From the NCBI RefSeq assembly GCF_044324785.1, contig NZ_CP172127.1: 64,000 bases of DNA; one strand, given 5' to 3'. Position 1 is the first letter of the stretch, and each line of letters opens with the position of its first letter. Positions 3,451-62,173 of this stretch are shown here, piece after piece. Below the pieces are notes generated by a model. It was given only the letters and a program-made list of their open reading frames with translations, was not told the DNA's origin and did no database searches. A program made the position numbers and the translations under genes. This stretch comes from Escherichia coli (GTDB lineage: Bacteria; Pseudomonadota; Gammaproteobacteria; Enterobacterales; Enterobacteriaceae).

Positions 3451-4032
3451 ATGGCGGTTCAAAAGAATGTTATCAAAGGCATACTGGCAGGTACGTTTGC
3501 GCTAATGCTGAGCGGTTGTGTCACTGTGCCGGACGCCATTAAAGGCAGCAGTCCCACGCCGCAACAAGATTTAGTTCGGGTGATGAGTGCGCCGCAGCTG
3601 TACGTTGGTCAGGAGGCTCGCTTTGGCGGCAAAGTGGTTGCGGTACAAAACCAGCAAGGGAAAACCCGCCTGGAAATTGCTACCGTACCGCTGGACAGCG
3701 GTGCCAGACCGACGCTGGGAGAACCTTCTCGCGGGCGCATTTATGCCGATGTGAATGGTTTTCTTGATCCGGTCGATTTCCGTGGGCAGCTGGTGACAGT
3801 TGTCGGGCCAATCACCGGTACGGTTGACGGAAAAATCGGCAACACGCCCTATAAATTTATGGTGATGCAGGCAACAGGTTACAAACGTTGGCATTTAACC
3901 CAGCAGGTGATTATGCCGCCTCAGCCGATTGATCCATGGTTTTATGGCGGTCGTGGCTGGCCCTATGGCTACGGCGGATGGGGCTGGTATAATCCCGGCC
4001 CTGCGAGAGTACAAACAGTTGTAACTGAATAA
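3451..4032 (+). CDS. yeaY: Slp-family outer-membrane lipoprotein YeaY
   Basis: 193 aa; signal peptide ending in lipobox LSGC. Confidence 0.85.
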
Positions 4033-4053
4033 TTGCTTGTTTTTAAAGAAAAA

Positions 4054-4078
4054 GAAACAGCGGCTGGTCCGCTGTTTC
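4054..4078. promoter_or_regulatory. FadR operator-like inverted repeat (distal site) and hairpin after yeaY
   Basis: GAAACAGCGG-CTGGT-CCGCTGTTTC is a perfect 10-bp inverted repeat containing CTGGTC; matches the distal fadD FadR site as I recall it. Confidence 0.5.
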
Positions 4079-4147
4079 TGCATTCTTACGGTAAAGATAA
4101 AAATAAATAGTGACGCGCTTCGCAACCTTTTCGTTGGGTAATTATCA

Positions 4148-4164
4148 AGCTGGTATGATGAGTT
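4148..4164. promoter_or_regulatory. FadR operator (proximal site) in fadD promoter
   Basis: AGCTGGTATGATGAGTT fits the FadR consensus AnCTGGTCnGAcnnGTT; about 70 bp before the fadD TTG start. Confidence 0.6.
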
Positions 4165-4236
4165 AATATTATGTTAACGGCATGTATATCATTTGGGGTT
4201 GCGATGACGACGAACACGCATTTTAGAGGTGAAGAA

Positions 4237-5922
4237 TTGAAGAAGGTTTGGCTTAACCGTTATCCCGCGGACGTTCCGACGGAGATCAACCCTGACCGTT
4301 ATCAATCTCTGGTAGATATGTTTGAGCAGTCGGTCGCGCGCTACGCCGATCAACCCGCGTTTGTGAATATGGGGGAGGTGATGACCTTCCGCAAACTGGA
4401 AGAACGCAGTCGCGCGTTTGCCGCTTATTTGCAACAAGGGTTGGGACTGAAGAAAGGCGATCGCGTTGCGTTGATGATGCCTAATTTATTGCAATATCCG
4501 GTGGCGCTGTTTGGCATTTTGCGTGCCGGGATGATTGTCGTAAACGTTAACCCGTTGTATACCCCGCGTGAACTTGAGCATCAGCTTAACGATAGCGGCG
4601 CATCGGCGATTGTTATCGTGTCTAACTTTGCCCACACTCTGGAAAAAGTGGTTGATAAAACCGCCGTTCAGCACGTAATTCTGACCCGTATGGGCGATCA
4701 GCTATCTACGGCAAAAGGCACGGTAGTCAATTTCGTTGTTAAATACATCAAGCGTCTGGTGCCGAAATACCATCTGCCAGATGCCATTTCATTTCGTAGC
4801 GCCCTGCACAACGGCTACCGGATGCAGTACGTCAAACCCGAACTGGTGCCGGAAGATTTAGCTTTCCTGCAATACACCGGCGGTACCACTGGTGTGGCGA
4901 AAGGCGCGATGCTGACTCACCGCAATATGCTGGCGAACCTGGAACAGGTTAACGCGACCTATGGTCCGCTGTTGCATCCGGGCAAAGAGCTGGTGGTGAC
5001 GGCGCTGCCGCTGTATCACATTTTTGCACTGACCATTAACTGCCTGCTGTTTATCGAACTGGGTGGGCAGAACCTGCTTATCACTAATCCGCGCGATATT
5101 CCAGGGTTGGTAAAAGAGTTAGCGAAATATCCGTTTACCGCTATCACTGGCGTTAACACCTTGTTCAATGCGTTGCTGAACAATAAAGAGTTCCAGCAGC
5201 TGGATTTCTCCAGTCTGCATCTTTCCGCAGGCGGAGGGATGCCTGTTCAGCAAGTGGTGGCAGAACGTTGGGTGAAACTGACTGGACAGTATCTGCTGGA
5301 AGGTTATGGCCTGACCGAGTGTGCGCCGCTGGTCAGCGTTAACCCGTATGATATTGATTATCATAGTGGTAGCATCGGTTTGCCGGTGCCATCGACGGAA
5401 GCCAAACTGGTGGATGACGACGACAACGAAGTACCACCGGGTCAACCGGGTGAGCTTTGTGTCAAAGGACCGCAGGTGATGCTGGGTTACTGGCAGCGTC
5501 CGGATGCTACCGATGAAATCATCAAAAATGGCTGGTTACACACCGGCGACATCGCGGTGATGGATGAAGAAGGATTCCTGCGCATTGTCGATCGTAAAAA
5601 AGACATGATTCTGGTTTCCGGTTTTAACGTCTATCCCAACGAGATTGAAGATGTCGTCATGCAGCATCCTGGCGTACAGGAAGTCGCGGCTGTTGGCGTA
5701 CCTTCCGGCTCCAGTGGTGAAGCGGTGAAAATCTTCGTAGTGAAAAAAGATCCATCGCTTACCGAAGAGTCACTGGTGACTTTTTGCCGCCGTCAGCTCA
5801 CGGGCTACAAAGTACCGAAGCTGGTGGAGTTTCGTGATGAGTTACCGAAATCTAACGTCGGAAAAATTTTGCGACGAGAATTACGTGACGAAGCGCGCGG
5901 CAAAGTGGACAATAAAGCCTGA
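4237..5922 (+). CDS. fadD: long-chain fatty-acid-CoA ligase FadD
   Basis: AMP-binding signature [12 protein letters not shown]; conserved N-terminus [14 protein letters not shown] starts at TTG 4237 after a GAGGTG RBS; track ORF extends upstream to ATG 4171. Confidence 0.9.
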
Positions 5923-5941
5923 GCGTTAAGTCAGTCGTCAG

Positions 5942-5967
5942 ACGCCGGTTAATCCGGCGTTTTTTTT
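5942..5967 (+). terminator. intrinsic terminator of fadD
   Basis: ACGCCGG-TTAAT-CCGGCGT stem-loop followed by T8, 20 bp after the fadD stop. Confidence 0.8.
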
Positions 5968-11190: not shown

Positions 11191-11210
11191 TCAAATAAAC
11201 TGGTTTGACC

Positions 11211-12296
11211 TTAACGCAAAATAATTTTGCAAATCGCGTCGGCAACCTGTGGCGTGGTGGCACTGCCTTTCATATCCGGTGTTTTCGGCCCGTGAGCAAT
11301 CACTTCTTCAATCGCTGCCAGAATACCGTTATGCGCTTGCTGGAAACGCTCATCGCCATTGCCGAGAAAATCGAGCATCATTGCACCGGCCCAAATTGTG
11401 GCAATAGGGTTAGCAATATTTTTCCCGTAGATATCCGGCGCGGAACCGTGAACAGGCTCGAAGAGCGACGGGAAAGTGCGTTCCGGATTCAGGTTGGCGG
11501 ATGGGGCAATGCCAATGGTGCCGGTGCAGGCCGGGCCAAGATCGGAAAGGATATCGCCAAACAAATTGGACGCCACCACCACATCGAAGCGTTCCGGCTG
11601 CATCACAAAACGCGCGCAGAGAATATCAATATGCTGCTTGTCCCAGCGGATCTCCGGGTAATTCTCGGCCATTGCTTCCACTCGCTCATCCCAGTACGGC
11701 ATGCTGATGGCTAAACCGTTTGATTTAGTGGCAGAGGTTAGCGTCTTACGTGGGCGGCTTTGCGCAAGTTCGAAGGCATAACGCAAAATGCGATCGACAC
11801 CACGACGCGTAAATACCGATTCCTGAATGACGACTTCATGCTCTGTACCTTCATTCACTCTACCGCCGAGCGAGGAATATTCGCCTTCGGTGTTTTCCCT
11901 GACCACGTAAAAATCGATGTCGCCAGGCTGTTTTCCCGCCAGCGGGCAGGGAACGCCAGGAAAGAGACGAACCGGGCGCAGGTTGACGTACTGGTCGAAT
12001 TCACGACGAAATTTCAGCAGCGAACCCCACAACGAAATATGGTCCGGAACGGTGTCCGGCCAGCCGACGGCACCAAAATAGATGGCGTCGAAACGGCTAA
12101 GTTGCTCATGCCAGTCGTCCGGCATCATTTTACCGTGATGGCTGTAATACTCGCAGCTCGCCCACTCCATTTGCTCAAAACTCAAGGCGAAGCCCCAGCG
12201 CTCAGCGGCAGCCTGTAACACGCGAATCCCTTCAGGAAGGACTTCTTTGCCAATCCCGTCTCCCGGGATCGCAGCAATACGCATCGTTTTCATCAT
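11211..12296 (-). CDS. dmlA: D-malate dehydrogenase (decarboxylating), isocitrate/isopropylmalate DH family
   Basis: 361-aa ORF MMKTMRIAAIPGDGIGKEV with the family N-terminal fold signature. Confidence 0.85.
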   Translation of the reverse strand: MMKTMRIAAIPGDGIGKEVLPEGIRVLQAAAERWGFALSFEQMEWASCEYYSHHGKMMPDDWHEQLSRFDAIYFGAVGWPDTVPDHISLWGSLLKFRREFDQYVNLRPVRLFPGVPCPLAGKQPGDIDFYVVRENTEGEYSSLGGRVNEGTEHEVVIQESVFTRRGVDRILRYAFELAQSRPRKTLTSATKSNGLAISMPYWDERVEAMAENYPEIRWDKQHIDILCARFVMQPERFDVVVASNLFGDILSDLGPACTGTIGIAPSANLNPERTFPSLFEPVHGSAPDIYGKNIANPIATIWAGAMMLDFLGNGDERFQQAHNGILAAIEEVIAHGPKTPDMKGSATTPQVADAICKIILR

Positions 12297-33981: not shown

Positions 33982-35361
33982 ATGGAACAGATAACAAAAC
34001 CGCATTGTGGTGCACGGCTGGATCGCTTACCGGATTGCCGCTGGCATTCGTCAATGTTTGCTATCGTCGCGTTTGGCTTGCTTGTCTGCTGGAGTAATGC
34101 CGTTGGTGGCTTGATCCTCGCGCAGCTGAAAGAGTTGGGCTGGACAGATAATTCCACCACTGCCACATTCTCAGCAATCACGACCGCCGGAATGTTTCTC
34201 GGTGCGCTGGTTGGCGGCATCATCGGTGACAAAACCGGTCGCAGAAATGCGTTCATCCTCTATGAGGCCATTCATATTGCCTCGATGGTGGTCGGTGCTT
34301 TTTCACCGAATATGGATTTCCTTATTGCCTGCCGTTTTGTGATGGGCGTTGGGCTGGGAGCTTTACTGGTGACGCTGTTTGCTGGGTTCACCGAATATAT
34401 GCCCGGTAGAAATCGCGGAACGTGGTCCAGTCGGGTTTCCTTTATTGGCAACTGGTCATATCCGCTCTGTTCATTGATTGCGATGGGACTCACGCCGCTG
34501 ATTAGTGCTGAGTGGAACTGGCGGGTACAACTGCTTATCCCTGCAATATTGTCGCTTATCGCTACGGCGCTGGCCTGGCGCTACTTTCCTGAATCCCCGC
34601 GCTGGCTGGAATCGCGCGGACGGTATCAGGAAGCCGAGAAAGTCATGCGGAGTATAGAAGAAGGCGTCATACGCCAGACGGGTAAACCTTTGCCGCCCGT
34701 GGTTATTGCTGATGACGGTAAAGCGCCACAAGCGGTGCCGTATTCAGCCTTACTGACAGGCGTATTACTGAAACGCGTGATATTAGGTTCTTGTGTGCTG
34801 ATTGCCATGAACGTTGTGCAGTACACACTAATTAACTGGTTGCCAACGATATTCATGACCCAGGGGATTAATTTAAAAGACTCGATTGTTTTAAATACCA
34901 TGAGTATGTTTGGCGCGCCATTTGGTATTTTTATTGCCATGCTGGTGATGGATAAAATTCCGCGTAAAACAATGGGTGTGGGGCTATTAATCCTGATTGC
35001 GGTGCTCGGATATATCTATTCACTGCAAACCAGTATGTTGCTCATAACGTTGATTGGTTTCTTCCTGATTACTTTCGTCTATATGTACGTTTGCTATGCC
35101 TCGGCAGTGTATGTCCCTGAAATCTGGCCGACAGAGGCCAAACTCCGTGGCTCCGGTCTGGCGAATGCGGTAGGGCGAATCAGTGGTATTGCCGCACCTT
35201 ATGCCGTTGCAGTGCTGCTCAGTAGTTATGGCGTAACGGGAGTCTTTATTCTTCTGGGGGCGGTTTCAATTATTGTCGCAATTGCTATCGCCACCATTGG
35301 AATTGAAACCAAAGGTGTCTCCGTTGAAAGTTTAAGTATTGATGCAGTAGTCAATAAATAA
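33982..35361 (+). CDS. ydjK: MFS sugar/metabolite transporter YdjK
   Basis: 459-aa 12-TM ORF with MFS motif GDKTGRR between TM2 and TM3. Confidence 0.85.
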   Translation: MEQITKPHCGARLDRLPDCRWHSSMFAIVAFGLLVCWSNAVGGLILAQLKELGWTDNSTTATFSAITTAGMFLGALVGGIIGDKTGRRNAFILYEAIHIASMVVGAFSPNMDFLIACRFVMGVGLGALLVTLFAGFTEYMPGRNRGTWSSRVSFIGNWSYPLCSLIAMGLTPLISAEWNWRVQLLIPAILSLIATALAWRYFPESPRWLESRGRYQEAEKVMRSIEEGVIRQTGKPLPPVVIADDGKAPQAVPYSALLTGVLLKRVILGSCVLIAMNVVQYTLINWLPTIFMTQGINLKDSIVLNTMSMFGAPFGIFIAMLVMDKIPRKTMGVGLLILIAVLGYIYSLQTSMLLITLIGFFLITFVYMYVCYASAVYVPEIWPTEAKLRGSGLANAVGRISGIAAPYAVAVLLSSYGVTGVFILLGAVSIIVAIAIATIGIETKGVSVESLSIDAVVNK

Positions 35362-40231: not shown

Positions 40232-41510
40232 ATGGAACAATATGATCAAATTGGCGCAAGACTGGACCGCTTGCCTTTGGCCCGGTTTCATTATCGTATA
40301 TTTGGTATTATAAGCTTTAGTCTGTTATTAACGGGTTTTTTGAGTTATTCAGGCAATGTTGTTTTAGCAAAGCTGGTAAGCAATGGATGGTCAAATAATT
40401 TCCTCAATGCCGCCTTTACCTCGGCATTAATGTTTGGTTATTTCATCGGCTCTCTTACCGGTGGGTTCATCGGTGATTATTTTGGGCGGCGCAGGGCTTT
40501 TCGCATAAATCTTCTCATCGTCGGTATTGCGGCAACAGGGGCCGCTTTTGTCCCTGATATGTACTGGCTCATCTTCTTTCGCTTCCTGATGGGCACAGGA
40601 ATGGGGGCGCTGATTATGGTTGGCTATGCTTCGTTTACGGAGTTTATCCCCGCGACGGTGCGTGGAAAATGGTCCGCGCGGCTCTCATTTGTCGGTAACT
40701 GGTCGCCCATGTTGTCTGCGGCGATAGGCGTGGTGGTTATCGCTTTTTTTAGTTGGCGGATAATGTTTCTGCTGGGTGGTATTGGCATACTGTTAGCCTG
40801 GTTTCTCTCAGGTAAATACTTTATTGAGTCGCCTCGATGGTTGGCGGGGAAAGGACAAATCGCAGGTGCAGAAAGCCAACTTCGTGAAGTAGAGCAGCAA
40901 ATTGAAAGAGAGAAGAGTGTTCGTTTACCCCCGCTTACTTTGAATCAGAGCAACAGCAAGGCTAACATAATCAATGGTACTTTCTGGCTGCTGTTTAAAG
41001 GGAAAATGTTACGACGTACATTAGTCGCGATTACTGTTTTAATTGCAATGAACATTTCACTTTATACCATCACCGTATGGATACCGACCATATTTGTTAA
41101 CTCCGGCATTGATGTCGATAAATCAATATTAATGACTGCTGTTATTATGATTGGTGCTCCGGTAGGAATATTTATTGCGGCATTAATTATTGATCATTTT
41201 CCTCGTCGATTATTTGGCTCCGCCTTACTTATTATTATTGCCGTGTTAGGCTATATCTATTCAATTCAGACTACAGAGTGGGCGATTTTAATCTATGGCC
41301 TGGTGATGATCTTCTTTTTATACATGTATGTTTGCTTCGCGTCGGCGGTTTATATCCCGGAGCTTTGGCCAACGCATTTACGCCTGCGCGGTTCAGGTTT
41401 CGTTAATGCCGTCGGACGGATCGTCGCGGTCTTCACGCCTTATGGCGTTGCGGCACTATTAACGCATTATGGGTCAATCACGGTGTTTATAGTGCTTGGC
41501 GTGATGTTAG

Positions 41511-62007: not shown

Positions 62008-62173
62008 TGTGGAGTTTCCTATATCAAACTTGATAATAGAGAAGTGGTCAGACAACTAAAAACGCAGTGACGGTATAACAAAGGGCGGCAGGCAACAAAT
62101 CATTACTGACAGTTTGTTGATTTTTCTCAAGGTTAATTCTCCTGACCCAGTTTGAGCCAGGAGAACAGCTAAA

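Follow-up and report, generated by a model that had tools for sequence, protein, structure and literature searches.

The spacer between yeaY and fadD in the 64,000-nt stretch of Escherichia coli DNA analyzed here (hereinafter the window) is very probably the canonical E. coli fadD control region. The two FadR operators, the CRP site, the ArcA box, the transcription start and the TTG initiation codon found in this interval are all already published. Thus, the interpretation offered by the first-pass annotation, which was made from the sequence alone, is supported as a correct rediscovery of known biology; the leader features it described are all present, either exactly where it placed them or within 1–2 nt. 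The gene order yoaA–tsaB–yeaY–fadD–rnd corresponds to the E. coli gene content of this region, and positions 4025–4245, which include the yeaY–fadD spacer, are 100% identical to K-12 MG1655. Accordingly, this is the same locus as the published K-12 fadD promoter (Black et al. 1992; DiRusso et al. 1993; Feng & Cronan 2012; Park et al. 2013), with an unchanged sequence and the same operators, CRP and ArcA elements, transcription start and TTG. All but one of the 5426 complete E. coli genomes carry the region. It occurs once per genome, which rules out a REP-like repeated element. On its 5′ side, yeaY (plus strand, ORF 3451–4032; a Slp-family lipoprotein in RefSeq) ends in a TAA at 4030–4032. On its 3′ side, the fadD coding sequence (plus strand, 4237–5922) specifies a 561-aa long-chain-fatty-acid–CoA ligase in both the ORF list and RefSeq. 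The comparisons across species given below draw on fadD orthologues from 80 Enterobacterales species recovered with tblastn.

Transcription of fadD has reportedly been mapped by Black and colleagues to an A lying 60 bp 5′ of the start codon. The start as given by Feng & Cronan (2012), who refer to Black et al., falls on the plus strand at position 4177, which precedes the TTG by 60 nt and is indeed occupied by an A. Based on the spacing to this published start, we infer that TAATAT (4164–4169, plus strand) serves as the −10 hexamer, with TTATCA (4142–4147) as a putative weak −35-like counterpart; a weak sigma-70 promoter of this form would initiate transcription at A4177. The −10 region, AGTTAATAT, is kept in 78/80 species. 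A simple promoter scan does not pick up the published promoter; its one hit, as against 0.7 expected, is TTAATA-18-TATCAT at 4163–4192. The CRP-cAMP site, AGTGA-CGCGCT-TCGCA (4109–4124), is centered at about −60.5, which is a class I position, and lies inside the CRP probe of Feng & Cronan. That probe was shifted by cAMP-CRP, and deletion of crp reduced fadD-lacZ expression (PMC3460868); CRP-cAMP bound here activates the fadD promoter. The ArcA-P box comprises three direct repeats spanning 4160–4191, with GAGTTAATATTATGTTAA (4160–4177) as its core 18-mer. The supplements of Park et al. (2013) list the same ArcA sequence, with a ChIP-seq peak, at −16 to +16, where ArcA-P represses fadD under anaerobic conditions. 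The CRP motif is preserved in 76 of the 80 species, as are the ArcA repeats, GTTAA-N6-GTTAA; counting the proximal FadR site as well, each of these three elements is retained by at least 95% of the set.

The proximal FadR operator OD1 (site 1), AGCTGGTATGATGAGTT, occupies 4148–4164, i.e., −29 to −13 relative to the transcription start and 73–89 nt 5′ of the TTG at 4237. The FadR-type site that the first-pass annotation had claimed here is an experimentally defined operator: the gel-shift probes of Feng & Cronan (2012, PMC3460868), who cite Black et al. (1992) for DNase I footprints, are exactly the two fadD operator sequences, and site 1 was bound by FadR with high affinity and released by acyl-CoA. 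OD1 adjoins the −10 hexamer and overlaps the core promoter with its published start at 4177. The footprints that Black and colleagues are said to have obtained in 1992 extend from −13 to −29 and from −99 to −115, intervals which map exactly to 4148–4164 and 4062–4078. FadR seated on OD1 occludes the promoter, and long-chain acyl-CoA relieves this by releasing it.

Downstream of the transcription start, the 60-nt leader is unstructured, folding less than its shuffled versions (z = +2.2). With respect to a possible pairing of small RNAs with the conserved block of the fadD 5′-UTR, the only match in the RIL-seq paper was the name of an author among its references, and a search of the text of the CpxQ preprint found no mention of the fadD mRNA, the fadD 5′ region or a fadD fusion. 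The section headings of that preprint attribute the repression of fad genes to FadL downregulation. A conserved uORF beginning at ATG 4182 was also considered and discarded, as this ATG lacks conservation and most species have CAG in place of its stop codon, TAG 4224.

The initiation codon of fadD is the TTG at 4237–4239 (plus strand), as the first-pass annotation held in preference to the upstream ATG of the mechanical ORF track. RefSeq (K-12 and PGAP-annotated genomes), the N-terminally sequenced set of EcoGene, which includes fadD with the downstream start, and the 80 orthologues all concur on this codon. Five nucleotides before it lies a Shine-Dalgarno element, GAGGTG (4226–4231), whose duplex with the anti-SD is worth about −7.1 kcal/mol and is at −6 kcal/mol or below in 79/80 species; the G residues at −11 and −8 are invariant across the 80 orthologues. 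The codon itself is TTG in 75 species and GTG in the remaining 5, with ATG in none, and each of the 80 tblastn alignments starts from residue 1. From the TTG onward, the entropies at the three codon positions are 0.25/0.08/1.23, as against 0.89/0.83/1.19 upstream of it. This onset of period-3 conservation indicates that the protein-level constraint starts exactly at the TTG. Moreover, in six species no in-frame start codon is available between the TTG and the nearest 5′ in-frame stop, which in two of the six lies just 18 nt 5′ of the TTG. No solved E. coli FadD structure that might document the N-terminus was found in the PDB. The N-terminus of FadD was reportedly sequenced by Black and colleagues in 1992, with a TTG initiation codon as the outcome. 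The leader ends in GAGGTG, 5 nt and the TTG as the real start of the 561-aa enzyme.

Of the alternatives that we considered, the one that survives best supplements the TTG rather than replacing it. An in-frame ATG at 4204–4206, 33 nt (11 codons) 5′ of the TTG, is preceded by an SD-like GGGG (4195–4198) and a 5-nt spacer, making 4195–4206 (plus strand) a candidate secondary start or standby site. We consider it possible, though doubtful on present evidence, that this ATG is also used, either to start a minor FadD proteoform of 572 aa or to hold ribosomes on standby for the weak UUG. An ATG is found at exactly −33 in 70/80 species; a GGGG or GAGG lies 5–7 nt before it, even in genera whose leaders have otherwise diverged, and its anti-SD duplex is at −4 kcal/mol or below in 70/80 species as compared to 17% of background positions. 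Species that lose the ATG mostly lose the SD-like element too, and two of them gain a stop at −18. The frame from −33 is open in each of 50 distinct sequences, about 18 of which would be expected to contain a stop; over nine diverged lineages, this gives P ~0.009, an approximate figure as the lineages are related. Further, Hon-yaku (2007) scored the −33 site above the true start and placed fadD among the multi-start candidates, with a “+11 codon” alternative start. Weighing against its use, the N-terminally verified product (EcoGene set) begins at the TTG, the 11 extra residues show little conservation at the protein level, and the module is missing in 10/80 species. Among initiation-profiling and N-terminomics sources, the supplements of TRAINSPOTTER and PMC11005335 and the body text of the Ribo-RET preprint make no mention of fadD.

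The second region of note lies immediately downstream of yeaY, where a perfect 11-nt inverted repeat with the arms AGAAACAGCGG (4053–4063) and CCGCTGTTTCT (4069–4079) flanks the loop CTGGT (4064–4068). The first-pass annotation had described it as a distal perfect palindrome containing CTGGTC, which is indeed present at 4064–4069; the spacing from the yeaY stop is, however, 20 nt and not the 22 nt that it gave. On the plus strand, we interpret this stem-loop (4053–4079), based on the inverted repeat, its folding and its covariation, as a probable intrinsic terminator of yeaY. The RNA segment 4033–4100 folds with −23.3 kcal/mol (z = −4.5), a stability equaled by none of 200 shuffled sequences. 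Six of the 11 stem pairs are GC, and the GC-rich part, CAGCGG/CCGCUG, is extended by A-U pairs. In 48 Enterobacteriaceae, 99.6% of the 480 stem cells are paired, whereas slid controls pair in 41–72% of the cells. Double, i.e., compensatory, changes are seen in 4 of 10 pairs (27 cells), and none of 500 shuffles matched the covariation score. Unlike the stem, the loop is variable among the orthologues; in Citrobacter youngae, for example, it reads CTCGT, a change that leaves the hairpin intact. A T-rich tail follows and reaches about 4088: in E. coli it reads UUUCUGCAUUCU, and T accounts for 7 of the 12 nt that follow the GC core, as compared to a mean of 8.2/12 across the 48 orthologues, and in Enterobacter it has seven consecutive T residues. 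A simple terminator scan calls the hairpin on the minus strand only; the plus-strand call is missed because the E. coli tail is interrupted (UUUCUGCAUUCUU). At the same distance, Serratia, Yersinia, Pantoea and Pectobacterium possess unrelated hairpins with T-runs.

In its architecture, the hairpin resembles the bidirectional type of Rho-independent terminator, in which an A-tract precedes the stem and a U-tract follows it: it shares with this class the GC stem with an A-U extension, a loop of 3–5 nt and the T-rich tail, here 20 nt after a stop codon, and its minus-strand version passes the scan. It differs from them in that its plus-strand U-tract is interrupted and the genes on either side run in the same direction instead of converging. 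The first-pass annotation had raised the possibility that the palindrome doubles as the yeaY terminator. The compensatory base changes favor this proposal, but the matching RNA 3′ end is absent from the Term-seq tables that we searched: the yeaY 3′ end has no entry in the tables of Adams (2021) or in the TERMITe supplements, and the former list only the fadD/SroD terminator. In this regard, yeaY may be poorly expressed. The distal palindrome is primarily an RNA hairpin, which most likely functions as the intrinsic terminator of yeaY.

The same DNA also contains the distal FadR operator OD2 (site 2), GGCTGGTCCGCTGTTTC (4062–4078), which is centered at about −107, has no overlap with the core promoter and lies within the site-2 probe of Feng & Cronan. 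An alternative reading of the palindrome would be that it is a second operator important for fadD, for instance by repressing cooperatively with the first or by blocking read-through from yeaY, with the hairpin being incidental. FadR footprints and shifts the distal DNA in vitro, acyl-CoA releases it, and Citrobacter, Klebsiella and Enterobacter were stated to retain the sites and their spacing for the most part (PMC3460868). The center-to-center distance of 86 bp to the proximal site amounts to about 8.2 helical turns. Against this reading, the affinity of FadR for site 2 is more than 10-fold below that for site 1, with oleoyl-CoA releasing both (PMC3460868), and a 2022 review covering both fadD sites (PMC9329746) calls a position near −107 “surprising” for a repressor. 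It is the stem that is conserved, and its compensatory changes are explained only by a hairpin, whether of RNA or DNA. The half-site has its TGG core in the variable loop, with CTGGTC, whose CTGGT is supplied by the loop, found in only 9/80 species; OD2 consequently looks lineage-specific. Its intact part is confined to the left half-site CTGGTC, and its overall match to the FadR consensus, at 9/16, is that of the background, with orthologues lacking CTGGT still scoring 7–8/16. The center of the FadR site, at 4070, is displaced by 4 bp from the dyad center at 4066, an offset implying that the symmetry of the palindrome belongs to the hairpin and not to FadR. Finally, in the more distant genera this location is taken by terminator-like hairpins of unrelated sequence. 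We therefore regard an important second operator as unlikely. The location of OD2 in a covarying, probable terminator hairpin, along with the lack of conservation of its key bases, instead suggests that it is incidental. In E. coli and a handful of further genera, the loop reads CTGGT and, with the 3′ arm, makes up a weak FadR site that is bound in vitro and is probably of secondary status. A bolder version of these proposals, to which we attach only tentative credence, combines two conserved in-frame modules, a moderate SD with AUG and a strong SD with UUG, of which the AUG would be used in vivo, for a minor proteoform or as a standby compensating for a deliberately weak UUG, with OD2 as a lineage-specific by-product of the yeaY terminator loop.

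Resemblance to the FadR consensus is, by itself, not significant for either site, being near or at background. OD1 agrees with the consensus aaCTGGTCnGACC(T/A)Gtt at 12 of 16 informative positions, a level reached by 13 matches in the 64-kb window as against 5.7 ± 2.8 in Markov-shuffled sequence. Nine other loci in the window score at least 12/16, matching as well as or better than the proximal site, and five of these are situated within long ORFs. Match counts so close to random expectation might invite the view that the FadR-like sequences are functionless chance similarities. It is not the consensus match that rises above chance but the hairpin fold, the conservation of the proximal site and the published binding work. 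The proximal core CTGGTA...AGTT is kept nearly invariant in 77/80 species, where it lies between −83 and −94 relative to the initiation codon and at a fixed distance to the −10, and both sites bind FadR directly in published work on the identical sequence. For the proximal site, this view is already refuted, and for the two sites together it is highly improbable.

Weaker still, and effectively refuted, is translation from the ATG at 4171–4173 (plus strand), from which the mechanical ORF track reads a 583-aa protein, 22 codons too long for fadD. This ATG is the earliest start codon that follows the 5′ in-frame stop, and it recurs at −66 in many Enterobacteriaceae, but it lies 4–6 nt 5′ of the published transcription start (−6 to −4) inside the −10/ArcA block, a placement that explains its conservation, and lacks a Shine-Dalgarno, while the orthologue alignments show indels between it and the TTG, in-frame stops 18–78 nt 5′ of the TTG in most cases and no codon-type conservation 5′ of the TTG, which both RefSeq and EcoGene use.

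The regulatory setup can be compared with that of fadL, whose promoter is the only other one in the fad regulon to have a pair of FadR sites. The two promoters share CRP activation, ArcA repression and modest repression by FadR. However, the fadL sites are 8 bp apart, of equal affinity and located at the promoter, whereas those of fadD are about 68 bp apart, with the distal one being weak and embedded in the probable terminator hairpin of the upstream gene. Tandem in-frame initiation sites, for their part, are known from genes such as infB and clpB. Like the tandem-start genes, a class surveyed by Ribo-RET, fadD has two conserved SD-plus-start modules in one frame, 11 codons apart; unlike them, its verified N-terminus corresponds to the UUG, and the upstream AUG is a candidate only. 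To the published picture of fadD, our comparisons add the covariation of the hairpin, the non-conserved half-site of OD2, the conserved UUG and the conserved SD and AUG at −33.

As a discovery, these results are minor, because the elements are already documented in the primary literature, reviews and RefSeq. As a quality check, they expose the over-extension of fadD by a mechanical ORF track and indicate that the sequence-only reasoning was sound. For specialists of the fad regulon, two points stand out: the puzzling distal FadR site falls in a covarying hairpin that is probably a terminator, and a UUG start has been kept order-wide beside a conserved in-frame AUG equipped with its own SD-like element.

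The yoaA, tsaB, yeaY, fadD and rnd genes lie on the plus strand of the window. The stretch from 3900 to 4400 is matched in 5425 of 5426 complete E. coli genomes, and positions 4025–4245 do not differ from K-12 MG1655 at a single base, so that the published K-12 experiments carry over directly to this locus. At the other end of the gene, the SroD sRNA (Rfam RF00370, 115 bits; 5881–5966), the sole Rfam match in the 64-kb window, overlaps fadD over its final 42 nt, along with the fadD terminator; Term-seq 3′ ends at K-12 1888017–1888020 (Adams 2021) correspond approximately to 5963–5966.

The first-pass annotation placed the start of fadD at the plus-strand TTG at 4237 rather than at the upstream ATG at 4171, from which the mechanical ORF track begins on the same strand, and this assignment is borne out. 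A GAGGTG lies five nt before the TTG, which is also the RefSeq CDS start in K-12 and in PGAP-annotated genomes, and an earlier study had the true fadD start 11 codons after an ATG that scored higher (Hon-yaku 2007). In a comparison of fadD loci from 80 Enterobacterales species, tblastn matches start at residue 1 in every species, with the start codon being TTG in 75, GTG in five and ATG in none. The upstream duplex with the anti-Shine-Dalgarno sequence is at or below −6 kcal/mol in 79 of them. Column entropies by codon position are 0.25/0.08/1.23 bits from the TTG onward, as compared to 0.89/0.83/1.19 bits over the 21 nt following an in-frame ATG at −33 from the TTG, indicating that strong constraint on the protein sets in at the TTG. 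In six species, reading back in frame from the TTG reaches a stop without passing any start codon, and in two Chimaeribacter species this stop is a mere 18 nt before the TTG. The order-wide retention of a non-AUG start suggests that a weak start codon is being selected for and is not a product of drift. The 94 nt that begin at the transcription start, comprising a 60-nt leader and the opening 34 nt of the CDS, are less structured than shuffles (z = +2.2), which suits such a start codon. Black et al. in 1992 (J Biol Chem 267:25513) reportedly determined the FadD N-terminus with TTG as the initiation codon, and are said to have mapped the transcription start to an adenine 60 bp upstream, with footprints at −13 to −29 and −99 to −115. 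Placed at 4177 (an A), this start puts those footprints exactly on 4148–4164 and 4062–4078.

The ATG at −33 (4204) might itself be used, whether as a secondary start or for ribosome standby, and fadD is already among the candidate multiple-start genes (Hon-yaku 2007). It occurs exactly 33 nt before the TTG in 70 of the 80 species and has its own SD-like element five to seven nt before it (GGGG in E. coli and GAGG in distant genera; element and ATG together span 4195–4206), with an anti-SD duplex at or below −4 kcal/mol in 70 of the 80 as compared to 17% of background positions; species without this ATG have mostly lost the element too. The intervening 30 nt lack an in-frame stop in all 50 distinct sequences, while about 18 of the 50 would be expected to have one under shuffling (P ~0.009 for the open frame across nine diverged lineages). 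Against this, the verified FadD N-terminus corresponds to the TTG, the extension upstream of it shows poor conservation at the protein level, and the sources searched for profiling and N-terminomics evidence are silent, there being no mention of fadD in the TRAINSPOTTER and PMC11005335 supplements or in the main text of the Ribo-RET preprint; on balance, we consider actual use of this ATG rather doubtful. As for ATG 4171, it is rejected as the fadD start for lying upstream of the transcription start (−6 to −4) and lacking a Shine-Dalgarno, its recurrence across species being due to its location inside the conserved −10/ArcA block.

Each promoter-proximal element keeps a fixed distance to the start codon: the CRP motif is present in 76 of the 80 species, the core of the proximal FadR operator O1 in 77 (as the near-invariant AACTGGTAnGCTGAGTT in 64), the −10 hexamer in 78 and the ArcA GTTAA-N6-GTTAA repeat in 76. 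The proximal FadR-type motif recognized at first pass, AGCTGGTATGATGAGTT (4148–4164), is a published gel-shift probe: Feng and Cronan (2012, PMC3460868) used exactly the two fadD FadR-site sequences and found that FadR binds site 1 well and site 2 more than 10-fold more weakly, with oleoyl-CoA freeing both; they credit the DNase I footprints to Black et al. 1992 and DiRusso et al. 1993. The probe that they call site 2 represents the distal site (4062–4078), and the two sites may be numbered the wrong way round in the figure of that paper. In the same study, cAMP-CRP binds a probe containing AGTGACGCGCTTCGCA (4109–4124), and crp deletion reduces fadD-lacZ expression. The fadD ArcA box, GAGTTAATATTATGTTAA, has a third repeat downstream and a strong ChIP-seq peak (Park et al. 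2013, PMC3798270, including supplements); positioned at −16 to +16 (4160–4191), it adjoins the proximal FadR site. In a simple sigma-70 scan, the published fadD promoter scores 8/12 and goes uncalled, the call falling instead on TTAATA-18-TATCAT at 4163–4192, with an implied transcription start at ~4199; with one match versus 0.7 expected by chance, this call is probably noise.

Resemblance to the FadR consensus alone hardly exceeds chance. Scored against aaCTGGTCnGACC(T/A)Gtt, as quoted in a 2022 review (PMC9329746; 16 informative positions), the proximal site has 12 of 16, with 13 such matches in the window versus 5.7 ± 2.8 in shuffled sequence, and the distal site has 9 of 16, which is background level. 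Other matches at least as good as the proximal operator (12–13/16) lie at 40697–40713 and 34450–34466, both inside long ORFs, and at 62042–62058 and 11198–11214. To our knowledge, none of these is at a FadR target, and they illustrate the poor discrimination afforded by the consensus alone. What does rise above chance is the hairpin fold of the distal site, the deep conservation of the proximal elements and the published direct binding experiments.

The distal perfect inverted repeat with CTGGTC is likewise present, its 11-bp arms (4053–4063 and 4069–4079) enclosing a CTGGT loop; it begins 20 nt, rather than the 22 nt originally given, after the plus-strand yeaY stop codon (4030–4032). The hairpin folds at −23.3 kcal/mol (z = −4.5), and its stem pairs in 99.6% of cells across 48 distinct Enterobacteriaceae sequences, with compensatory double changes in four of 10 stem pairs (e.g., A-U to G-C). 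The observed covariation score was reached by none of 500 shuffles, and slid partners pair in just 41–72%. The 12 nt past the GC core contain a mean of 8.2 T, with seven consecutive T in Enterobacter and the weakest tracts (6–7) in E. coli and Citrobacter. Unrelated hairpins with T-runs occur at the same position, ~150–175 nt before the start, in Serratia, Yersinia, Pantoea, Erwinia and Pectobacterium. The covarying stem, T tract and equivalents in other genera are the signature of a predicted intrinsic terminator for the upstream gene, yeaY. The proposal that the palindrome doubles as the yeaY terminator thus draws support from stem covariation; a search for a yeaY 3′ end in the Adams 2021 Term-seq tables and TERMITe supplements returned none. 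A simple terminator scan calls the hairpin solely on the minus strand, where it is followed by TTTTTCTTTAA, and it thus has the layout of a bidirectional terminator. The genes on either side run in the same direction, however, and we know of no minus-strand transcript at 4053–4079.

The loop is variable (CTGGT, CTCGT, CTTGT, CCGGT, TCA and others), and CTGGTC, the half-site that creates the distal FadR site (OD2) in E. coli, is found in just 9 of the 80 species. The right half of OD2 is the 3′ arm of the stem, and the center of the whole FadR site (4070) does not coincide with the dyad of the hairpin (4066) but is offset by 4 bp. A FadR site near −100 has been described as surprising and untested in vivo (PMC9329746). 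Given these features, along with the weaker binding, the most economical reading would have selection acting on the hairpin, with OD2 following from the loop sequence as a weak, lineage-specific by-product.

Overall, the first-pass observation is confirmed and its interpretation supported, but the fadD control region belongs to the established biology of a model gene. The mildly new aspects are comparative only: the covariation of the predicted terminator, the lack of conservation of the OD2 half-site, the UUG start across the order and the conserved SD and AUG at −33.
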